Virus record (IMG/VR): IMGVR_UViG_3300031993_000033
Span: 1 to 64,000 of that record
Length of the DNA stretch: 64,000 nt
Strand: one strand, 5' to 3'
Source of the DNA: a virus
Lineage: Duplodnaviria; Caudoviricetes
Shown here: positions 1-57,139 of the stretch, in pieces
Numbering within the stretch: position 1 is the stretch's first letter
Layout of the letters: each line of letters begins with the position of its first letter
The notes under the pieces: model-generated
What the model was told of the DNA's origin: nothing
Database searches by the model: none
The model's input: the letters and a program-made list of their open reading frames with translations, nothing else
Position numbers and translations under genes: made by a program

Positions 1-3000
1 TTTTTGATGGTGTAGTTATAAGCCTCCATTGCTGCATTATCACCTTCAATAGCAGTCTCCAAAGCCTCAATTTTTGCAATGAGTTCCCTATAATACTTTT
101 CGTCAGCAGCCGAGTTTATGCCGTTTGCCAACATGATATTATATTTTGCCTTTTCCAATTCAAGTTCTTTCTTTTGGAGTTCTATTCTGTTTCCCAAGAT
201 GTTAGCCTGAGTTTGCGCCGTAGCTACGCTTTGCTTACGTTCCTCAACTTCTTTTTGAATAATGCCATCTTTAAGATTAACAATTTCCTCCAAGCTAAGA
301 ATGTAATCGCCGTTTGCGTCAACTTGAATATTTGATAACAGCCCTTGATCGTCCATATTGATTATTTCCCATGCCGTCTTAGCATTAAGAGCTTCGCCAG
401 AAGCAATCTTTTGCATTGCGCTCACGATCTTATCAATATCACTTACAACACCTTTTTGAGCCTCGTCAAGTGACTTTAACCACGCCTCTTTCGCAGTTTC
501 AAAAGAGTTTGAAGCTTGCATGGAGGACAACCCTATTTGTGAAATTGCGCTTTCAATATTTGCTGAAACTTCTGGATATTTAAGACCAATCTCTCTAAGA
601 GACTTAACCGTTTCCTTTAATTGCAAAGATGCGCTAAACCTATCTGCAACTGTCGCTGCTTCATCATTGTATTTCGCGTTCAGCTCATTAAGTTGAATTA
701 TGAGTCTATTGTATTCATCAGCCGTTTTCACATCATCTTCAAAAGCCTTTAGACCAACAGATTGTTGTTTTATAGACTGTTCCTTGCTACGTATTTCATA
801 AAACTCAGAAAAGGCTTTGTTTTGATTGTTTATATCTTCCAATAAACCATCAAAGTCAAATGAAGTATATGTGTTATTTAGATTGTTCTGTAGAGACATC
901 CACGACTGATATGCTTCAGTCAAAGCGTTCATCGTCTTGGTTTGCTCTTCGGCGTTCAACCCCGTCTTAATGACGAAACTCCTTATCTTATCTTTGCCGC
1001 CAGCCCCAGCACTATCTTCCTCTACAAAATCAATATTCTGCAAAATGCTTTGATAATAAGTTTCAAGATACTGCTTTACCTTGCTATACGCAACAGAGGA
1101 TTCTGTCAAAGCCTTTTCATATCTATCATTCTCTTTTTGAGTAGCACCATATCTATCCCTAAGAACATCAAAAGACAAAGTGTAAGGAGATTGCTTTTTG
1201 TTTTGAGTAAAGAAATCATTGGCTCTTTTTATATCAGCCGAGTTTTCTCTAAGCCAAGTCTCATTCTCTTTTACTTTCTGCTGTGTCAACAGAGAGATGT
1301 TTTCCTCAAGACTCTTGTTTACAAGGTCTATACTATCTTTTTCCAGTTGATACTTGGAAACAATTTGGTCTTGCAGATTGACTAATTCCGTTTTAACGCT
1401 ATTTATGTCCTTGGTCGATGTAACCAACTTGACATACTCGTTTGTGAGAGAATTAAGCTCGTTAGCTTCTTCTTCGTAAGCCTTTATCTTTTCGAGGGTT
1501 TGCCGTCTGAGTTCTTCTTGTTCTTTTCTTTCTCTTTCGGCTTTTGCTCTGGCTGTCTTTTCTTTATTCCACCACTTAGTAAAAGCGTTAGTTAAAAGCG
1601 TTACCGAAGCTGTTATTGCAATTACCTCTAAATTAAGGTTTTTGAAAGCTGATGTAATCCTTCCAATTCCAGTTGCGCCTTCGGCTGCACCGCTACCAAA
1701 AATACCTCCGCCTTTTAAGCCTTTAATAAGGGCGATTGTGCTTATCAACGTCGGGAGTGTTCCAGCGAATTTGCTTATATTTCCAAAAGCTCTAATTATA
1801 TTTGTAATCAGCTTGGCAATTACGCCAAGTGTCTGTGTTACACTTGAGTCTGTTAAACTCTGAATTATTTCGTTGAGAGAGTCAAGTATTTTAACAGCAT
1901 TATCTGAATTAACAAACTCGTTGGTCATTTCAGCCCAACTGTTTTTGAGCTTGTTGATGCTACCAGACCAGTTGTTTGCGGACTTCTCCGCTTCACGCAT
2001 AGCCGAGCCAACTGCGTTATCTGAAGCAAACTCGGACATCATCTTTTCGTATGTTTCCCAGTTCTCAAGCAACGCAATCAGTTGATTGCCTCGGTATTTT
2101 CCACCAACACTGGATATGAGATTGGCGACTTTGATAGAGTCCTCAGACTCTTTCTTAACAGCGATAGACAACTCTTTAAGAACTTGCATGGGATCACGCA
2201 ATGCCCACACACCATTCTTAACTTCTTTAAGAGATACGCCCAGAGCTTTGGTAGCCGCTTCATATTTAGACAGAGACTCAGTTGTTATAGACTCGCCACC
2301 GTCGCCTATATCAGCCGCATCCGCCTTGACTTGGGCTATATTCATTAGTATGCCCTTGAAAGCTCTACCGGCAATCTCTCCGCCTTGCTGAGTAGTCGCT
2401 ATCATAGTTCCAACTGCGGATGTAAGCTCATTTATTTCAACACCAGAGGCGGCAGCTTGAGAAGCCGCTATTTTGGTAGCCTCTGCCAAACTCTCCATGT
2501 TTACCGCATTTCTATTGGTGATGTAGTTCTGGGAGTCCAAAACTGAATTAAGCTTTTGCTCGCTACCTCCCAAACTGTAAGCTGCGTTAGTAGCAATAAT
2601 GTACTGATTTGCCATTTCCGCCGTCATATCACCTGCGGCTTGTGCCTTTAGAGAAAGTTCAGATAGCGTTTCGGATTGCTTTTCACCAAAACCAGCTCGG
2701 CTCATTTCTTGCACGCCAAGTAAGTAGTCGCTGGCTGTTCTACCGTAACTACTTGCTACGTCAAATGAAGCTTTGCCGAGTGCTCGCAAACTCTCCTCAG
2801 TTCTATCCGAAGTTTTTGAAATTTCGGTCAGTATGTCGTCCATGCTCTGAAGCTCAGAAATAGCAGAACGAATTTGCCGAGTCACCATATTTATAATCTG
2901 ATTTGCCGATATATAAGTAGAAACCAACTTAAACGCATTGGCAAATTTTTCAAAAGCAGTTGCGCCGGCAAGTCCAGCGGCACTTGCCTCTTTTTTGAAT

Positions 3001-4622
3001 ACCGCCAAGTCGGTTGCAAGATTTTTAACCTCTCGGTCTGAAAGCTGTGCGCCTTTTGCCATTTGCGCCATTATATTAGACCATTGCTCCGCAAACGTCT
3101 TACCATCCGCCATTTTCTTAGTGGATTCTACGGCTCGCTTATTGGACTCGGCATATGCGTTTACATCGGCTGATAATTTACGAATACGATTACTAAGATT
3201 TGCTATCGCATTATTCTTGGTAGCCTCTGCATTGAACGCTTGTAATTTAGCTTTGGCAATGTCAAAATCATCAAGAAAAGCGTTCATAGCAGAAGTGTCC
3301 CCGCCTTCCGCCAGCTTTGCCTTTAAGTTGGATATTTCAGTTCCGAGAAGTGTGCTTGCCACACCAGCTTTTTCGGCTTTGCTTATAAACGCCTTTAGTT
3401 TCTCGGTCTGTTCTGCCCACTGAGTTGCAATATCATGACGGCGAAATGCCGTAGAGTTATCAGCCTCACGAATTGTCTTGCCGAGATAAACATAAGCGTC
3501 GCCTTGCTCATTAAGAGCATAAGTGAGAGTTTCAACGGATTTATCTCCCTTTTCAACTTGGACGTAGAAACGCTGTAATTCGCCAGTAGTGTCCTCAACA
3601 GCCCGCTTAATTCTATTAGCGTTGTCGGCGATGCCTTGTTCTCCGAAGAAAGCGTTTAAAGTTGATTTAGCTGTATCTAATTGCGCCGACTTGCTTGACT
3701 TGTCAGAACTAACAATTTTGGCAATGTCTGGGTAATAATCATTTACGGTAGATGACACAGCATCAGACTTCGCTTTGTTGATTGCGTCTATGTCAACCTT
3801 TATTTTCTTCAGTTCGTTATCAAGCTTGATAATTGTCTCTCTCTGTTTTTCAACAGGTTGAGTATTGTCAAACTCAGACATAATCCGCCGAATAGTTTCA
3901 AACTGAGATTGGAGTTCTTCTCTGTCTCCATACTTCTTGTGATATACGTCAGCCGTCCCCCGCGACTTCAAGAAGTCATTGTATGCAATTTGTGCTGCTT
4001 TTGCAGAGTCCTCTATTTTCTTGTTTTCTTGCTCTACCTTTGCTAAATTTTGAGTTATTGTATAAGTGGTTTTAGCGGTTTTACCTTCTATGTTGTCAAG
4101 TTGATCGACAATATTTATAATGCCACCAGTTTTTCTGTCTACACCAGATATTGATAACGAATCCAATATCTTTTCGCCACCAGAACCAGCAAGTTCCACA
4201 AATTTAGGTTTTATCTTTGTTATAGTAACATCAAGGTCTTGAAAGTATTTAGTTAATCTTTCAATATCCTTAGATCCCAAACCAAGATTTCTAAGAGAAT
4301 CACCGACATTCTCAATGGCATTTTCATCAATATCAACAGGTATTTTTATGCCAGTTTTAATATTAGATAAACTATTTTGTATAACACTGACCGCATTATC
4401 AATATTCTTATCAAAAGTAAACCCACCAATGTCAAGTTTGAGTTTTTTGCTGATATTTGCCAATTGTGATTGTATAGAAGAAATACCTTCAGTGTCTAAC
4501 TCGCACTTGATTTTTATTCCCTCAATTTTTTTCTGCAATTTAGGAATATCAACTTCGTTAATTTGCTTCGCACTATCATCTACATTTAACGAAGCAACTA
4601 ACTCTATCATATTATCTGCCAT
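1..4622 (-). CDS. Tail tape measure protein (3' end runs off window)
   Basis: ATG at 4622 after GAGGTGG RBS (MADNMIELVASLNVDDS...); long helical Ala/Lys/Glu-rich frame with a TP901-type TMP core (IRSAISELQSMDDILTEISKTS...DYLLGVQEMSRAGF) at about 1.9-2.9 kb. Confidence 0.9.
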   Translation of the reverse strand, partial: MADNMIELVASLNVDDSAKQINEVDIPKLQKKIEGIKIKCELDTEGISSIQSQLANISKKLKLDIGGFTFDKNIDNAVSVIQNSLSNIKTGIKIPVDIDENAIENVGDSLRNLGLGSKDIERLTKYFQDLDVTITKIKPKFVELAGSGGEKILDSLSISGVDRKTGGIINIVDQLDNIEGKTAKTTYTITQNLAKVEQENKKIEDSAKAAQIAYNDFLKSRGTADVYHKKYGDREELQSQFETIRRIMSEFDNTQPVEKQRETIIKLDNELKKIKVDIDAINKAKSDAVSSTVNDYYPDIAKIVSSDKSSKSAQLDTAKSTLNAFFGEQGIADNANRIKRAVEDTTGELQRFYVQVEKGDKSVETLTYALNEQGDAYVYLGKTIREADNSTAFRRHDIATQWAEQTEKLKAFISKAEKAGVASTLLGTEISNLKAKLAEGGDTSAMNAFLDDFDIAKAKLQAFNAEATKNNAIANLSNRIRKLSADVNAYAESNKRAVESTKKMADGKTFAEQWSNIMAQMAKGAQLSDREVKNLATDLAVFKKEASAAGLAGATAFEKFANAFKLVSTYISANQIINMVTRQIRSAISELQSMDDILTEISKTSDRTEESLRALGKASFDVASSYGRTASDYLLGVQEMSRAGFGEKQSETLSELSLKAQAAGDMTAEMANQYIIATNAAYSLGGSEQKLNSVLDSQNYITNRNAVNMESLAEATKIAASQAAASGVEINELTSAVGTMIATTQQGGEIAGRAFKGILMNIAQVKADAADIGDGGESITTESLSKYEAATKALGVSLKEVKNGVWALRDPMQVLKELSIAVKKESEDSIKVANLISSVGGKYRGNQLIALLENWETYEKMMSEFASDNAVGSAMREAEKSANNWSGSINKLKNSWAEMTNEFVNSDNAVKILDSLNEIIQSLTDSSVTQTLGVIAKLITNIIRAFGNISKFAGTLPTLISTIALIKGLKGGGIFGSGAAEGATGIGRITSAFKNLNLEVIAITASVTLLTNAFTKWWNKEKTARAKAERERKEQEELRRQTLEKIKAYEEEANELNSLTNEYVKLVTSTKDINSVKTELVNLQDQIVSKYQLEKDSIDLVNKSLEENISLLTQQKVKENETWLRENSADIKRANDFFTQNKKQSPYTLSFDVLRDRYGATQKENDRYEKALTESSVAYSKVKQYLETYYQSILQNIDFVEEDSAGAGGKDKIRSFVIKTGLNAEEQTKTMNALTEAYQSWMSLQNNLNNTYTSFDFDGLLEDINNQNKAFSEFYEIRSKEQSIKQQSVGLKAFEDDVKTADEYNRLIIQLNELNAKYNDEAATVADRFSASLQLKETVKSLREIGLKYPEVSANIESAISQIGLSSMQASNSFETAKEAWLKSLDEAQKGVVSDIDKIVSAMQKIASGEALNAKTAWEIINMDDQGLLSNIQVDANGDYILSLEEIVNLKDGIIQKEVEERKQSVATAQTQANILGNRIELQKKELELEKAKYNIMLANGINSAADEKYYRELIAKIEALETAIEGDNAAMEAYNYTIK

Positions 4623-17230: not shown

Positions 17231-19081
17231 TCAGTTATATCTTTTTGCGGGGCGAGCCATGAAGAAGTTTGCTTCTTCCTCAACTTTCGGTTTGTTTATT
17301 ACACTTCCTCTACGTAATTCGTATAATCTATGAGCAAGCATAATCAAAACGTAGAAGCGGTCATCGTGCATACGATTTTCTTTCTCTTTAGATAACGCAT
17401 AATTGACAGAAGTCCTTTCTGCATTTTCAGTCTTATGAATAGAAGTTACCTCATTTTTCATAAGGTCTATTTGAACTAATGCCATCTTCTCATCATCTGA
17501 AAGTTCATGATTTACCCATATCTCGTTACCTTCCGCGTCAACGCCATCAATAACTTTTATGAAGTCTTGCCCCGAATACTCATAAGGGAATTTAATAACA
17601 CCTAAATCCATAAGCTCTATCATTTCCTCAACCATTTGAGTACGATATTTTTTAGGACTAATAAGCCTTAATTTATCACAGGCATTTGGATAACGACTAA
17701 CATAAGTTTGATACAATTCATTCGTCTTATCAATAAATCCTCTATGAACCTTGCCGTATTTATCCGAATACTCATTCAAAAGTCCATCTCCGTAAGCACT
17801 GACACCACCACCGCCAGCACCCGCATCAATTTCGAGCAGATTCAGATACTCATAATCAGGATTTTGCCCATTATAAATATTAATTAACGACCTAAGTTCT
17901 TCCAATTGCCTATTAGAATCAAGTTTGTATTTTTTCTTAGTGGCGTTATCAATCATGTTTACACAATTTATAATGTCTCCACACCAACCCAATTCTTTGT
18001 CTTGGTAAACATTCATAACGCCTATAATGCTATTGTCTGCCGTTCTCGCAGGATCGAAGGCTATTACGATGTTACTATTTGGTTTCCAATGCAACGTAGG
18101 CAAATAAAAGTTCTCATTTCTACGAATAGTGTCCCATTTAACAATTTGACTACTTCCACCGTCCATTGTGGGCTGATTGAAATATTCTCTTAATGCCTTA
18201 TCTTTATTACTCTTGAGAGCTGCATCAACTTTGTCTCTTGTGAGTAGGGGAGTATATGGCTCACCATTCATATAGGTTTGAATTGCTACATCACAAATCA
18301 TGTCACAAACAAAATAATCTCTATCTCCTGCAATCATGCGCTTTGCAAAATTCTTATAGTGCTTATAGAATGTTTTATCCATTTGGTCTTGCGATGAAGC
18401 ATAAACCAACTGAGTAGGCACTTTCCTATGCTCCGCTTCAGGATTATAGTTTTCTTCCGTAGATGTACTGAAATCGCTATTTTGCGTTGCAAACGCTTCG
18501 CAGACAGCTATTAATTCATCAGAGCAAAATGCGCTCTCATCAAAAAATACAAGCGTAGCCCTTCGAGAACGAGCTGAATCTGGACGACTGTTCAACGTAT
18601 TAATTGAACTACCATTATAAAATTCTACTTCATATCCCGCTGGATTATGACTGAATCCAGTTTTGTTAGTTGCTGTCTTTTTCGTTTCTTTTTCGAGTAT
18701 ATCCTTTAAAGAACGAATAGAAGCCGCCGTCTTACCCATGCGAGTGATTATTTCTTCAAGCTTCGAGAATGTTTCCTTTGCCTGATCTCCGACGGATGAA
18801 ACTATATAAATAGCTTGATTTTCATAAAGTACCGCCTTCAAAATCATAAGAATTGCGCCCAAAAAAGATTTGCCAAAGTTTCGACTACAACACCAAACAC
18901 TATGTGATGCGTTCCATGTGCTTTGCAATATCCATTTTTGAGCATCAATTAATCTAATACCAAGCTAAAGTAGGTCTTCACACGCAATGCATGGATTCCT
19001 CCGATAATAAGCAATAGACTCGGCGTCTAATTCACATATTTTTTTCTTAATCGGAGTGAGAATAATTTTATTCCTTTTCAA
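17231..19081 (-). CDS. terL: Terminase large subunit, interrupted by in-frame TAG at 18965-18967 (predicted recoding)
   Basis: TTG 19081 after AAAGGAGGTGAT; Q-motif LIDAQ, Walker A SRNFGKS, Walker B LVFFDE, nuclease FDPA and HDDR; the 38-codon upstream segment is in frame with ORF 17231..18928. Confidence 0.9.
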
Positions 19082-19103
19082 GACCTACATCACCTCCTTT
19101 ATA

Positions 19104-20456
19104 TTATCCAGAATAATATTGCCATGACAATTTTTCACCAGTCTCAGGGTGTCTGCCAGCAGTTACTTGCCTTCCAGATAACGCTCCTTGTATATCTCCC
19201 TTTCCTATCCAACGTTTAGCATCATTAATTGAATCAAAAACCTGTCCTGTATTTATACAAATTATTGGACTGAAATTACCATTTTCAAATTTATATTCTG
19301 GGAGATTATCTTGTTTTTCTAAATATTCATCGTAATACATCCACCTTTTATATATTGATGGAGTATTCAATATTTTGTGGTATTTACAACTTTGAGTAAT
19401 TGAATATTCACTAACATTTGTTTGCCGTTTAGCCTCTATAATGCTATAATATTCTTGATTGGTGTCTAAGCATATTACCTTATTAGCTTGACATTCTAAT
19501 TGATTAATACGAGGATTGTATTCGCATAAACCAATTACATTTCCTTCAATCAAATAGTGTCTTAATCCACTTCGAGATGTTTTATATTTAGCCATAATAT
19601 TTCTGAAAGACATACCATTTTTATAATCAGTACATACTTTAACAATTAAAGAATCTATTGCAAATTCGTGGCACTGTTTTAAATCAATATGAGAAAAATC
19701 AAAAATTGTACTTAACTCACTATTAAGAATTTGACTGGTGATATAATCATATTCCGACTTTCTGCAATCAACGACTATATATTTATCAATATATTTTGAA
19801 GCTAATTGCCTTTTAAAATCATCGTTAAGTTTAACGTCCTCCAAACTATGCCCACCATTAGTAGAAAAACTTTTCTCGTAATGTTGAATACCATTGGTTT
19901 CGATAATTACTTTTATTCCATTATATTCAAAATAAAAATCGTATTTATATTTGCCACACCATTTTTGATTTACTTTTGTAAATTGATATTCGTATGGTAT
20001 ACCCGTTTGATTCAATAAGGCAATCATAAATTTTTCAGGATAAGAAATTGAATCTCTGCAACGAGAACAATATTTATTATACTGAACTGATACTGGTTTA
20101 GTATGTCTTATTCCACCACAAGAAGGACATTTAAAAGATATTTTTTTATTTGTTCCAAATACATATTTATACCCGTCATCTGGATTATCTAATAATTCAC
20201 AAATTTCAGGATTAGTAGTCCACATATCATTAAAACCAATCAAAACCTTTTTATTATGACAATATGGACACCCTTTGCCTTTTAATGTGTTATTGGGAGA
20301 TGCATAAAAATCACCATTGCAGACATTGCAATGATGTTTTAATGAATCTCTATATACAGTATAATCATCGACTAAGATAAGATTCGGAGACAATTCTTTT
20401 AAACGTTTAGAATATTTTTCGTTATCCCAAACCCTTTCACCCATTATCATCACCAT
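19104..20456 (-). CDS. Homing endonuclease-like protein (zinc ribbons, PD-(D/E)XK/Vsr-like core, NUMOD1-like tail)
   Basis: GCPYC, CPSC, SYPE, YDFY..IIETNGIQHY; AT-rich insert between terL and its upstream gene. Confidence 0.75.
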   Translation of the reverse strand: MVMIMGERVWDNEKYSKRLKELSPNLILVDDYTVYRDSLKHHCNVCNGDFYASPNNTLKGKGCPYCHNKKVLIGFNDMWTTNPEICELLDNPDDGYKYVFGTNKKISFKCPSCGGIRHTKPVSVQYNKYCSRCRDSISYPEKFMIALLNQTGIPYEYQFTKVNQKWCGKYKYDFYFEYNGIKVIIETNGIQHYEKSFSTNGGHSLEDVKLNDDFKRQLASKYIDKYIVVDCRKSEYDYITSQILNSELSTIFDFSHIDLKQCHEFAIDSLIVKVCTDYKNGMSFRNIMAKYKTSRSGLRHYLIEGNVIGLCEYNPRINQLECQANKVICLDTNQEYYSIIEAKRQTNVSEYSITQSCKYHKILNTPSIYKRWMYYDEYLEKQDNLPEYKFENGNFSPIICINTGQVFDSINDAKRWIGKGDIQGALSGRQVTAGRHPETGEKLSWQYYSG

Positions 20457-21561
20457 TCTTTAATCTTTGTATTTCTACAAGAAGCTGTCGCTTTTCTTCC
20501 ATTAAATCATCAACTTTTTCTTGAAGGTCAATGACCATCTGTCGTTTAATTCCGTCGATTTCGCGCATATCATTTTCGTCAAAGAAAGTATTTTTCTGTA
20601 TTGCGTTCATTGACACCTCTGCCGCCCACCGAGAACCCTCGGACTTGAGTTGGTCATAGTAGTCAGCTTCAGCTCTATCAAAATCTTTCTCTCTTAAATC
20701 TCTCATAAGATAAGTGAGAGTCGATTTACCTATATCTTTGTTTGACCTGTTCTTAACTGAAATTTCGTTTTCTTTTGCAATTTTATCATTTGATTGAACG
20801 AGCTTGCCTTTCATTTCATTTAAGACTTGAATATCCTTGCTGTCGGTCAAAGGCTTTAATTGAGCAATGAGTAAATCATACTGTCTTATTTGATTGTTGT
20901 TATTTACAATTTGAATAATCTGAGATAACTTGTAGTTATCATCGACAACTTCTTCATCGTCTAAGTATTTTACAAGCTCACCAAACAGATAACGCCTATC
21001 ACTGGATTGATAACCAGCAAACGGATCGTAGCCAATAACTTCTATTACAGTATCGACATTTTTCTTTTCTTCTGCCGTCCAGTTTTCTTCCATCATATCA
21101 TCAGCTTCTTGTTTTGAGCGTAAAAACTGCTCGCTATTAATACTTGACATAACATAATCCACAAATGTGAGATTTTTATTCTGTGATAGATTAAGTCTCT
21201 TGATATAGTCACCCAATCTAATATCGCCAGTATTTTTTTCTTTCATTTGCATATATGTCTTTTCGGAGAAAAACCATCCCATTTCTCCGCAAGTTACAAG
21301 AAGCGCAATTTTTTCGTCTTGGTACTTCTCTCTCATTCTGGCAAAGAAATCATCACAGCAATAAGTACATATATTACTAAATCCATCATTGCCGTTATAT
21401 AAAGAATTTTGTATGACCTTAAAGAACTTACCCTCTGGTTCTTGAACAATCTTGCCACAGCAAGAGCATTTATACAGAGGTGGCAAAGTAGTTGTATCTA
21501 TTTTGCGATACTTAGGCTTCGACTTCTTCTCTAAGGTCTGTTTTGAACCTCTCGCTGGCAT
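20437..21561 (-). CDS. Conserved protein upstream of terL, candidate terminase small subunit
   Basis: CxxC pairs, GYDPF motif, coiled coil; synteny only. Confidence 0.5.
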   Translation of the reverse strand: MPARGSKQTLEKKSKPKYRKIDTTTLPPLYKCSCCGKIVQEPEGKFFKVIQNSLYNGNDGFSNICTYCCDDFFARMREKYQDEKIALLVTCGEMGWFFSEKTYMQMKEKNTGDIRLGDYIKRLNLSQNKNLTFVDYVMSSINSEQFLRSKQEADDMMEENWTAEEKKNVDTVIEVIGYDPFAGYQSSDRRYLFGELVKYLDDEEVVDDNYKLSQIIQIVNNNNQIRQYDLLIAQLKPLTDSKDIQVLNEMKGKLVQSNDKIAKENEISVKNRSNKDIGKSTLTYLMRDLREKDFDRAEADYYDQLKSEGSRWAAEVSMNAIQKNTFFDENDMREIDGIKRQMVIDLQEKVDDLMEEKRQLLVEIQRLKNGDDNG

Positions 21562-21573
21562 ATTTTCACTCCT

Positions 21574-22536
21574 TTAACTCATAATTATTTTTGCAAACTG
21601 CGGAATACTTACGCTCGGAATCCGACTTGTGAACTCCACATTTTTAAGCACATTCATATTGCTTGTCGTCAGCAACTCGTCATCTAAAGCCTGTGGTACT
21701 TTACTCAGCGCATTTGCGTAATATTCCTTACATCTCTGCAAATACTTGTCCCCATAATCTGCGCTATAGGCATCAAGTATCTCATTGTAATACCGATAAG
21801 TAATCATTAAATCGTCTGCAATCATTTTTAACACTACTGGCTTATCGGTCATTTTACGCATACAAACTTCATCAATATATGCTTCTGCCGCCTTTATGTA
21901 ATCATACAATACCCAGAATCTATTGTCTGTTTTGTCGGAACGTGTTAGACTTCCATCAGTCCACAACCACGAATAACAAACCTTGTCAATTGTAATGGCA
22001 TTAGGTTCATACGACAAGAACAACTGATTGAAATAGCAATCCTCGTTTACACGCAAATTTTCTCTAAAACGGATGTTGTTCTTATAAAGAAACGCCCGTT
22101 TAAAAAGTTTGCCGTGTAGCCAAGTTGTGCTATGTTCACTTTCGCCAACTGCAAACTTGTTATCAGTGCGGAAGTCATTATCAAAAGCTCCGCATACCAT
22201 ATCAGCATTTTTGCTTTTGGCGTTATACCAAAGCAACTCACAGGCAAACGCCGAAGCCAAACAGTCATCACTGTCTGCAAAAATGATAAACTCGTTATCG
22301 CTATGATCTATGCCATACTGACGAGCAACACCCGCACCACCGTTTTGAGGAGTGACAAGATACTTTATATTCAATTTGTCCTTGAATAAGTTGTTACTGT
22401 AATCTACACCGTCTGCATCACTAACGATATAAACGCAAATATCGTCTTTGATAGTCTGCATATAAATGCTTGCCAACAAGCGATTGATTGTATTCTCAGC
22501 CTTATAAGCTGGCACGATTATATCTATCTTTGCCAT
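21574..22536 (-). CDS. Glycosyltransferase family 2
   Basis: IIVPAYK, NGGAGVARQYG, FADSDD (DxD), ED motifs. Confidence 0.9.
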   Translation of the reverse strand: MAKIDIIVPAYKAENTINRLLASIYMQTIKDDICVYIVSDADGVDYSNNLFKDKLNIKYLVTPQNGGAGVARQYGIDHSDNEFIIFADSDDCLASAFACELLWYNAKSKNADMVCGAFDNDFRTDNKFAVGESEHSTTWLHGKLFKRAFLYKNNIRFRENLRVNEDCYFNQLFLSYEPNAITIDKVCYSWLWTDGSLTRSDKTDNRFWVLYDYIKAAEAYIDEVCMRKMTDKPVVLKMIADDLMITYRYYNEILDAYSADYGDKYLQRCKEYYANALSKVPQALDDELLTTSNMNVLKNVEFTSRIPSVSIPQFAKIIMS

Positions 22537-22559
22537 AATATCATTCCTTTTATTCAAAT

Positions 22560-22596
22560 TGGTGCGCCGTCCAACATCATTGCAGTCGGACAACAC
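22560..22596 (-). ncRNA. tRNA minihelix-like hairpin ending in ACCA
   Basis: 12-bp stem GUGUUGUCCGAC/GUUGGACGGCGC with four G-U pairs, followed by A-CCA. Confidence 0.4.
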
Positions 22597-22617
22597 AAAA
22601 GCCCTCTCAAAGAGGGC
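22597..22617 (-). terminator. Intrinsic terminator after recombinase
   Basis: GCCCTCT-TTG-AGAGGGC then TTTT. Confidence 0.65.
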
Positions 22618-22662
22618 AAGGAGGAATATATGAATTTGAAGATTTCTAATAAAATGTGGGTT

Positions 22663-23691
22663 CTATTTTATATCAGCAATGCCTTTGTTTTCTTGCTGTA
22701 TAATGCCATCTGCACTAAAATACTTTCCAAAGCTGTCAACCGCCGACTTATCATTGTAGATTTGAATGAGCGAAACGTCAGCCCACCCAAAGTATTCTCT
22801 AATAACTTCTGCTGGTATATTCATGTCAACAAGCTCCGTACACAATGCGTGTCTAAGAGCATGATAGTAGAAAGGACAACCGAGTATCTGAGTAAACTCA
22901 TCTTTCCATCCTTCAATATCCGTTCTTTGTTCCCAAATGTCACCACGCTTAATAACAAGAACCCATTCACTGTCAATGCCTAATTCTTCACGCTTCTTGC
23001 GCCACAAATCCATATAGGCATCAACTTTATTCATTACATATTTGTTTATCTGTTTGCCTCTTGTTCCACGACCTTTAGCTCTTACCCTGTCTGTTTTATA
23101 AAGACAGCCAAATTCAAGATGGTCAGGAGTAAAGTATTCCATTTTCATTTGAAGCAGTTCTGCCTTACGCATACCAGAATAAGCAAGAATTGCAATACAA
23201 ACAGCTTTATCATATTCTTCTCTCTTTACAAGCTCATCAAGTAATCTCTGTACTTGTTTCGTAGAAAGAACAGTCTTTTCCCTAACAGCTTCATTAGCAG
23301 GAGACTCAATTTTTCTGATAATGCTACGATAATCTTCATATCCTTCTTCTTCGTCTAACATCGAAGTAATGTAATTAGACAATGATGATAATGTAGATTT
23401 AACTCGCCTTATTCTACGAGGACTCCATTTCCATACATTAAGGGCATGGTTTTGAAATCTTGCGAAGTCACGTTTGCTTATCTTGATAAATTCCTTATTA
23501 GCATTTTCCTCTAAATTCCAAACAAAGAATATCTCAAGGTCTGAGTTGTATGCTAAGATTGTTTGAGGACTTCTGTCAATTGAAGCAAGATAATCAAGGA
23601 AGTCTTTACTTAATTGAGTATTCTCAGGATTAATCTGCTTAATCTTTTCTTCGGTTGTAATCTTGTTATAAACCGTTGATCTGCCTTCCAT
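22663..23691 (-). CDS. Tyrosine recombinase (XerC/D-like)
   Basis: SGMRKAEL, KGRG, HALRH, GW..IY catalytic residues; ATG after AAGGAG. Confidence 0.9.
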   Translation of the reverse strand: MEGRSTVYNKITTEEKIKQINPENTQLSKDFLDYLASIDRSPQTILAYNSDLEIFFVWNLEENANKEFIKISKRDFARFQNHALNVWKWSPRRIRRVKSTLSSLSNYITSMLDEEEGYEDYRSIIRKIESPANEAVREKTVLSTKQVQRLLDELVKREEYDKAVCIAILAYSGMRKAELLQMKMEYFTPDHLEFGCLYKTDRVRAKGRGTRGKQINKYVMNKVDAYMDLWRKKREELGIDSEWVLVIKRGDIWEQRTDIEGWKDEFTQILGCPFYYHALRHALCTELVDMNIPAEVIREYFGWADVSLIQIYNDKSAVDSFGKYFSADGIIQQENKGIADIK

Positions 23692-23789
23692 GAACTCATC
23701 TCCTTTAATTCTAAGAGCACACAAGGGCGGCATCGCAATGTCACCCTTGCTCGGTAGTCCGATGGTACTTATAGCGTTGACGACACGCT

Positions 23790-23863
23790 TGGTTGCAGCT
23801 CTGAGACTCGAACTCAGGACGAGAGGATATGAGCCTCCCATGATACCACTTCACTAAGCTGCC
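23790..23863 (-). tRNA. tRNA-Met(CAT), possibly initiator-like
   Basis: Cloverleaf with CUCAUAU anticodon loop, GUUCGAGUC T-loop, encoded CCA; G1-A72 mismatch. Confidence 0.85.
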
Positions 23864-50211: not shown

Positions 50212-50286
50212 TGGGGATTCGCCAAGTGGTGAAGGCACAGGACTTTGACTCCTGCATCGTGGTTTCGAGTACCACATCCCCAACCA
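50212..50286 (+). tRNA. tRNA-Gln(TTG)
   Basis: Cloverleaf, CAGGA-CUUUGAC-UCCUG anticodon arm, encoded CCA. Confidence 0.9.
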
Positions 50287-50514: not shown

Positions 50515-50600
50515 GGACTTGTGGCGAAATTGGTAAACGCACTTGGTTCAAACCCAAGCGGTCTTAGACCTTGCAGATTCGAGTTCTGTCAAGTCCACCA
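50515..50600 (+). tRNA. tRNA-Leu(CAA)
   Basis: Cloverleaf with long variable arm, CUUGG-UUCAAAC-CCAAG, encoded CCA. Confidence 0.9.
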
Positions 50601-56809: not shown

Positions 56810-57139
56810 ATGACCACATATGAATTATTCAGAACACAAGACAGAGGATTTTTTGAGCCTGTAAATATGATTGATGTCAAGGAAGTCATTGCCAACAATC
56901 CTAACGGAATGTGCCTGTGGGTTCAAACGCCCGATTACTATATGGAAGTTGACTGCCCTGATAGGTATAACATGAACGCAAGGTTTGATGTTGAGGGCAA
57001 GATGTTGGTCAACAAGCTGTTTCCTTATAGCTTTACAGGCTTCATGGACGCTTGCAATTGGTTTGATGAGCAAAGAGCTACTTACCGCTTCGCTGAACTT
57101 ATAGGGAGGAAGAAACCGTGGACATCAGACAGCAGATAG
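56810..57139 (+). CDS. Hypothetical protein
   Basis: GAGGAG RBS. Confidence 0.6.
   Translation: MTTYELFRTQDRGFFEPVNMIDVKEVIANNPNGMCLWVQTPDYYMEVDCPDRYNMNARFDVEGKMLVNKLFPYSFTGFMDACNWFDEQRATYRFAELIGRKKPWTSDSR

Follow-up and report, generated by a model that had tools for sequence, protein, structure and literature searches.

In phage T4, ribosomes bypass part of the gene 60 message on the MobA element (work of Huang 1988 and Bonocora 2011, both summarised in bioRxiv 10.1101/2022.08.31.505936). The 50-nucleotide (nt) insert of gene 60 blocks self-cleavage by MobA and outlasts the decay of the endonuclease, and some metagenomic cassettes of this kind use VSR endonucleases (Manning & Atkins, bioRxiv 10.1101/2022.08.31.505936). 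Here, a coding gap of 6 nt is described in the gene for the terminase large subunit (terL) of a rumen phage (Duplodnaviria; Caudoviricetes). The DNA analysed, referred to as the window, comprises the first 64,000 nt of IMG/VR record IMGVR_UViG_3300031993_000033, a complete 104.7-kb genome with direct terminal repeats (DTR) that recurs in the sequencing runs of many studies. The gap opens with a TAG stop codon that stands between two identical Leu codons (CUU-UAG-CUU), and a preliminary description made from the window had proposed that ribosomes hop over it. Beyond that description, comparison with relatives revealed that the insert always travels with a 450-amino-acid (aa) Vsr-like endonuclease gene, or with remnants of one, located just upstream of terL. 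The 6 nt may be the stop-led coding gap of a homing-endonuclease cassette, decoded by a +6 hop, an interpretation to which we give an even chance.

The resemblance to gene 60 extends over several features. In both cases an essential gene is interrupted, at a highly conserved stretch, by an insert that relatives lack, UAG directly follows the take-off codon (CUU-UAG in all five insert-bearing lineages at terL), and the insert is linked to and mobile with a free-standing homing endonuclease and is kept after the latter has decayed. The VSR type of the endonuclease is also shared with some gene 60 cassettes. However, the terL gap is in frame and only 6 nt long instead of 50 nt, the target gene is terL and not a topoisomerase gene (Topo2L), the endonuclease gene stands upstream of the whole of terL without splitting it, and no take-off stem-loop, internal Shine-Dalgarno (SD) sequence or dedicated nascent-peptide signal was found at the gap. 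The two cassettes share no sequence homology. With bypass demonstrated for gene 60 and proposed for terL, the terL cassette is one that would work like gene 60 but stands outside the gene 60 family. Searches of the literature returned no description of an endonuclease-linked 6-nt stop gap in terL.

Hopping over a stop codon between matched codons was obtained with synthetic constructs (Weiss 1987, as cited in PMC5009743), and no natural in-frame stop-hop is known, such events having been shown only with synthetic constructs (review PMC5009743). Unlike those constructs, the terL case is natural, conserved and located in an essential gene, and the landing codon of one natural variant (GUC) is unmatched. 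The synthetic stop-hop sequence CUU-UAG-CUA has an arrangement similar to that of CUU-UAG-CUU in the window. Candidate bypass has also been described for the terminase gene of Hau3, where frame-shifting blocks led by UUA occur and no endonuclease was reported (PMC10732093). Like Hau3, the locus described here has short non-coding sequence in a phage terminase gene, flanks that match uninterrupted relatives and a slow A-site codon at the 5' end of the block; unlike the Hau3 blocks, which shift the frame, are led by a rare sense codon and were proposed to be regulatory, the terL gap is in frame, stop-led and endonuclease-linked. The gene for release factor 2 (prfB) provides a further parallel, as it undergoes a programmed +1 frameshift at the shifty stop CUU-UGA. 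At terL, too, peptidyl-tRNA-Leu would occupy CUU with a stop codon waiting in the A site, but no SD sequence lies 3 nt upstream of the site. A prfB-like +1 shift at CUU-UAG was considered and rejected because the +1 frame meets TAA after six codons and is unproductive.

Results

In the window, terL occupies the minus strand in two in-frame segments. Segment 1 (18968..19081, minus strand) has 38 codons, from a TTG start at 19081..19079 to the putative take-off Leu codon CTT at 18970..18968, and encodes LKRNKIILTPIKKKICELDAESIAYYRRNPCIACEDLL; its translation (LKRNK...NPCIACEDLL) aligns with the N-termini of all full-length homologues. Segment 2 (17231..18961, minus strand), with 576 codons plus a stop, begins GGT ATT (GI...) and contains the Q motif DAQKW, the Walker A motif SRNFGKS and the nuclease domain. 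The 6-nt coding gap between them is TAG+CTT (18962..18967, minus strand), which may alternatively be written as CTT+TAG at 18965..18970, and it is missing from every insert-less homologue. Across the junction the minus strand reads TGT GAA GAC CTA CTT TAG CTT GGT ATT, or CEDLL*LGI in translation, in which CTT-TAG-CTT occupies 18970..18962, TAG 18967..18965 and the putative landing codon CTT 18964..18962. An SD sequence, AGGAGG (19093..19098, minus strand), lies 11 nt 5' of the TTG start. The next common in-frame starts 3' of the TAG are a TTG at 18928 and an ATG 27 codons further on; both lie past the conserved Q motif, and neither has an SD sequence. The preliminary description of the site, with CTT-TAG-CTT, a strong ribosome-binding site and a TTG 38 codons upstream in the same frame and no ribosome-binding site after the stop, was exact. 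Gene callers shorten terL genes of this kind to 538-565 aa or mark them as pseudogenes.

The identity of the gene was established by Pfam Terminase_6N (23 bits, above the cut-off), by PHROG 2 and other families annotated 'terminase large subunit', and by a terL profile match to T4 gp17; a portal gene (PHROG 2739) lies directly downstream. No second terL was found when one was sought in the complete genome, leaving the copy in the window as the sole terL. A search of GenBank phages gave no relative of this terL, either as DNA or as protein.

The homologues define the length of the insert. The 120 best matches to the terL product among 5.8 billion proteins included 118 of full length (about 607-626 aa), and all 118 read ..DLLG[IV].. 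with nothing between LL and G. The insert was also missing from 77 of 78 further viral-contig loci, and about 86 related insert-less loci in total carry no extra residue at EDLLGI. The preliminary description had predicted that homologues would read EDLLGI, which was borne out in the 118 proteins and about 86 loci, and had named two residues at this point of the homologues as one observation that would count against a hop; no protein or locus in either set has them. Since nothing separates LL from G in the homologues, the window holds exactly 6 extra bases, and only the removal of 6 nt restores the invariant EDLLG[IV] spacing of the terL family. The other two of the 120 matches (P0029 and P0049, 538 aa each) share their internal ATG start with the truncated open reading frame (ORF) of the window and probably come from further interrupted terL genes. 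In the protein database, a region search for 38-aa N-terminal ORFs yielded nothing beyond fragments from contig ends and pieces with frameshifts.

The insert was recovered in five sequence lineages from independent assemblies, as the same TAG-containing 6 nt at the same codon. The insert-bearing loci comprise L001, L014 and L024 (98% amino-acid identity), L023, L026, and a distant clade of L011, L016, L019 and L022 (63% identity). Contigs from two other bovine-gut studies (runs X2 and X3) cover the site without gaps and include the insert, and a goat run (X8) yielded an insert-less relative from the same habitat; the contig of a putative RNA run (X15) did not extend over the site. Scans for any 6-nt insert and for any insert of 1-30 nt at the site returned only 6-nt inserts, only in viral contigs and only in alleles with the QKW motif. 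The insert is real, recurrent DNA.

Substitution patterns indicate that terL is kept functional on both sides of the stop. Over the 37 sense codons before it, the comparison of cassette lineages gave 1.25-1.65 synonymous substitutions per site (dS) and 0.02-0.08 nonsynonymous substitutions per site (dN), with similar values after the stop, so that, for lineages of the cassette separated by dS >1, dN/dS is about 0.02-0.05 before the TAG as well as after it. Within the lineage of the CTT-TAG-GTC type (GTC type), all 10 of the 10 internal differences are synonymous. Such purifying selection on both flanks means that both parts of terL are translated and needed and, given that the genome has no other terL, rules out a plain nonsense mutation or pseudogene. 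Between L016 and L019, six of the ten synonymous differences fall within 25 nt (terL nt 272-296), which suggests a small gene-conversion patch in the GTC-type copies.

The insert is strictly associated with the gene upstream of terL. All five insert-bearing lineages have an endonuclease gene or its remnant upstream, about 86 insert-less loci have neither, and tblastn found the endonuclease in no insert-less locus. In insert-less relatives, an upstream gene of 374-380 aa directly overlaps the ATG start of terL, whereas in insert-bearing loci a gene of about 450 aa or its remnant lies in between. The endonuclease ORF of the window (450 aa; 19104..20456, minus strand) opens with the native terL start, ATGGTGATGAyrATG, so that its first five codons, ATGGTGATGATAATG (20456..20442, minus strand), represent the captured start, and terL restarts from the SD sequence and TTG supplied by the cassette. 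The leader element AAAGGnGGTGAT...TTGAAA is kept in all cassette copies. Between the terL SD sequence and the TTG of the window there is also a minimal ATG-TAG start-stop ORF (GGAGGTGATGTAGGTCTTG; 19082-19098, minus strand). Compared with the ATG start of relatives, the 11-nt spacing, the TTG start and the start-stop ORF may make terL initiation weaker in cassette carriers.

Comparison of carriers with insert-less alleles revealed sharp breakpoints within terL. The window differs from insert-less L003 up to +98 and is identical to it from +99 to +493; the right arm of the putative co-conversion tract in terL accordingly covers 18872..18961 (minus strand), and past about 18871 the window matches L003 at 100% over 395 nt. 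L023 and insert-less L004 share only 69% identity 5' of the insert and show many differences from -114 to +114, none for about 200 nt and then 96-99% identity, which places the boundary at +86 to +114 nt. In the tree of terL bodies, insert-bearers are scattered over at least four positions between insert-less alleles, requiring at least 4 changes, and constraining them to one clade was 873 log-likelihood units worse (approximately unbiased (AU) test, p = 2.5e-44). For the short 5' terL tract, a single origin was not rejected. Sharp breakpoints together with polyphyletic terL bodies are the signature of homing with co-conversion, and the 6 nt sit midway along the tract. Judged from this mosaic pattern, the insert and the endonuclease gene form a mobile homing cassette. 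The alignments show that the predicted Vsr-like gene inserted after the first terL codons, took over the terL start, brought a new SD sequence and TTG, and apparently converted the 5'-most ~210 nt of terL, among them the 6-nt insert, which interrupts the best-conserved motif of the N-terminus (EDLL|GI).

The protein encoded upstream of terL is, as predicted from fold and motifs, a Vsr-like PD-(D/E)xK homing endonuclease. Its AF2 model (predicted local distance difference test, pLDDT, 88.9) indicates a Vsr-like PD-(D/E)xK core at residues about 134-253, preceded by treble-clef Zn fingers at the N-terminus and followed by C-terminal helix-turn-helix (HTH)/NUMOD-like DNA-binding modules. Pfam assigned DUF4379 (zinc fingers) and, weakly, DUF559, and the PHROG matches 4538, 559 and 9084 are annotated as homing/HNH endonucleases, 9084 specifically as 'homing endonuclease'. 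Structural searches gave moderate Z scores for Vsr (1cw0_A, 8.9; 1vsr, 8.0), for I-Bth0305I (3r3p_A, 7.9) and for the DNA-binding domain of I-HmuI (1u3e_M, 6.0). The nuclease core thus superposes on Vsr and I-Bth0305I at Z 7.9-8.9 and is joined to I-HmuI-like DNA-binding modules; unlike the intron-encoded I-Bth0305I, the gene is free-standing, carries N-terminal DUF4379 zinc fingers and has an activity that is predicted. Residues D173, E186, H192, D212 and K215 are invariant across 35 endonuclease homologues.

The window, L023 (81% identity) and L016, L019 and L022 (41% identity) have intact endonuclease genes, the last value being that between the two types of cassette, whose endonucleases are thus homologous. 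Remnants comprise residues 58-105 in L014 and L024 and a 62-aa fusion in L026. In L014 (1559-1902) and L024 (3065-3408), two small unrelated ORFs of 69 and 81 aa replace most of the endonuclease, and the TTG start and the TAG insert stay; these two loci represent decay of the cassette with retention of the gap. Further endonuclease homologues (P0152-P0166) have 41-95% identity, and among GenBank phages only distant ones were recovered, in Staphylococcus, Clostridium and Yersinia phages. A crude heuristic detected no similar in-frame stops next to distant endonuclease homologues (L030-L055).

The codons at the stop are more uniform in carriers than elsewhere. The Leu codon before the stop is CTT in all five insert lineages, compared with 7 of 77 insert-less alleles, and CTT-TAG-CTT is invariant in four cassettes within a tract where about 74% of codons have a variable site. 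The preliminary description had proposed, as a check, to see whether relatives keep a stop between matched codons that vary together. The matched arrangement stands for the four diverged lineages that retain CTT-TAG-CTT; the distant clade (L011, L016, L019 and L022) has CTT-TAG-GTC, and the landing codon is thus not always matched. At residue -4 from the stop (18979-18981 in the window), Gln replaces a near-universal Glu in two of the five insert lineages (L026 and L016), whereas none of the 118 insert-less homologues has Gln there; a nascent-peptide effect and chance are both conceivable.

The use of TAG elsewhere in the genome was also considered. Global recoding of TAG was rejected, since translation table 11 gives dense and complete gene packing, reading TAG as Gln extends no other real gene sensibly and no tRNA with a CUA anticodon is encoded. 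The genome has three tRNAs only, namely Met(CAU) at 23790-23863 (minus strand), Gln(UUG) at 50212-50286 (plus strand) and Leu(CAA) at 50515-50600 (plus strand). Among 140 crude ORFs, about 5 terminate at TAG, 86 at TAA and 49 at TGA, and the TAG-ended genes that look real number about two (22663-23841, minus strand; 56810-57139, plus strand). In the region 21574-23841 (minus strand), a 392-aa gene ends with TAG at 22663 and is followed in the same frame, without any further stop in between, by a 340-aa glycosyltransferase-like gene, such that readthrough would give a fusion of 755 aa. In the relative L002 the two genes are not in one frame, and the fusion frame is therefore probably due to chance.

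Two neighbouring features complete the picture of the locus. The 374-aa gene upstream (20437..21561, minus strand), whose 3' end overlaps the endonuclease start here and the terL start in insert-less relatives, has no Pfam or PHROG match. In the insert-less relative L012, an extra ORF of 329 aa (882-1868) lies between the glycosyltransferase-like gene and the terL-upstream gene and may be another mobile insertion near terL. Far from terL, a very long ORF (3-4622, minus strand; >1540 aa) runs past the start of the window.

Discussion

Under the proposed mechanism, the ribosome would stall once UAG enters the A site, with peptidyl-tRNA-Leu still paired to CUU; this tRNA would unpair and then re-pair with the CUU located 6 nt downstream, and decoding would restart at GGU. 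The product would be a wild-type ...EDLLGI... TerL of 614 aa, with the junction peptide ...NPCIACEDLLGIR (EDLLGIR), as opposed to EDLL-X-LGIR under readthrough. On the model of T4 mobA/gene 60, the insert probably disrupts the target of the endonuclease in the genome that carries it and leaves the protein unchanged. In the preliminary description, the hop was thought to throttle TerL production. That purpose is unsupported, and the evidence points instead to a homing cassette, in which the 6 nt would probably be mobile DNA that disrupts the target site. For the decoding step itself, we judge a hop to be evenly balanced against all other possibilities taken together. The fuller proposition, namely a selected, natural in-frame +6 stop-hop with signals no more than CUU-UAG-(C/G)U(U/C) that shields the endonuclease target, is advanced tentatively, at a little under an even chance.

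A hop would yield precisely the invariant protein, and it is favored by the CUU ahead of UAG in all five lineages, by the constancy of CUU-UAG-CUU in four cassettes and by the retention of TAG. Several observations weigh against a hop. Synthetic stop-hops are inefficient, at about 1%. In the distant cassette, CUU-UAG-GUC, the landing would pair at two of three positions, and the change from Leu to Val is conservative, a pattern that translation of the codon would predict. Among the Leu codons of the phage, CTT is the most frequent (30%), and identical flanking codons are thus not improbable on their own. The invariant 14-nt run CTA-CTT-TAG-CTT-GG in four cassettes merely ties for the longest in the tract and is not significant alone. 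No conserved RNA structure was found at the site, where the window gave z = 0.73 and two valid fold inputs showed no hairpin in common. In the profile alignment, T4 gp17 has 3 extra residues in this loop, which indicates that loop length varies across distant TerLs. Lastly, the gap is a multiple of three, so that readthrough would keep the frame as well.

Readthrough is the next most probable explanation. If UAG were read by a near-cognate or host suppressor tRNA, the same cassette would give a TerL that is two residues longer (EDLL-X-L/V-GI) and still works, and several features of the locus would be compatible with such a product. The two cassette types both keep the gap in frame and differ in the additional codon by a conservative exchange, Leu against Val, and the insert is placed at a helix end or loop, the loop in which T4 gp17 is longer; the TerL model is of low confidence (AF2, pLDDT 65) and therefore says little about tolerance of two extra residues. 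In addition, at the first codon position the phage tRNA-Gln(UUG) is near-cognate to UAG, a stop at which E. coli inserts Gln, and TAG is a rare terminator here, used by about 2-5 of 140 ORFs. However, none of the 118 proteins and about 86 loci has an extra residue at this point, the genome encodes no tRNA with a CUA anticodon, and the conserved CUU before the stop serves no function in readthrough. The TAG has moreover been kept across dS >1 and between endonucleases of 41% identity, although a single substitution would yield a sense codon and full expression; its retention over such deep divergence suggests that the protein longer by two residues is not what selection wants. We consider readthrough unlikely, though with an appreciable share of the probability.

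The remaining explanations dispense with continuous decoding or question the stop itself. Cases are on record in which a homing endonuclease splits an essential gene without loss of its function (gene 39/60, Aeh1 nrdA; bioRxiv 10.1101/2022.08.31.505936), and terL may likewise be in pieces, with a 38-aa N-terminal peptide ending at UAG and a 576-aa body made by termination-reinitiation, the two assembling as in the MobA/MobE genes-in-pieces. Purifying selection on both parts would fit this arrangement, but window-type cassettes have no ATG, GTG or TTG and no SD sequence between the stop and the Q motif, and the Ile that follows Gly is encoded by ATT or ATA, meaning that not even a weak start is conserved. 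The endonuclease gene also lies upstream of both pieces and not in between, and we regard a split gene as improbable. A parasitic cassette that has inactivated terL is marginally more improbable still; such genomes would persist by complementation from insert-less co-infecting relatives or would be recent dead ends. Insert-less relatives do share the habitat (goat run X8), and the endonuclease decays in some lineages, whereas cassette lineages diverged to dS >1 are under purifying selection before and after the TAG, the differences within the GTC-type lineage are synonymous throughout, the genome is complete and found in the runs of many studies, and the insert outlasts loss of the endonuclease. 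TAG-recoded phages exist, and TAG stops are rare in this genome; nevertheless, a code in which TAG is a sense codon throughout the phage or host is at odds with the lack of a suppressor tRNA and with the location of the sole in-frame TAG found, which is in an insert that homologues lack. An assembly error is countered by the recurrence of the 6 nt in independent assemblies with synonymous differences around them. Both an alternative code and an assembly artefact are close to refuted. A small residual probability is reserved for other modes of decoding.

T4 gene 60 has long been viewed as an isolated curiosity with elaborate signals. The terL locus is a very small test case that occurs in nature and has been maintained in evolution, and its variants differ in the codons around the stop (CUU/CUU and CUU/GUC) and in the state of the endonuclease (intact or decayed). 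A stop-hop at this site would tie the gap to a selective reason, namely self-immunity to the endonuclease without alteration of an invariant protein motif. The interruption also matters for annotation, as terL genes of this kind are truncated or called pseudogenes. If the proposed stop-hop is true, some phage genes annotated as 'broken' or as 'readthrough' are actually hopped, and minimal bypass sites would be a general trick of selfish nucleases. The locus is likewise a record of an active homing element, by which the 5' ends of terL are reshuffled among rumen phages.

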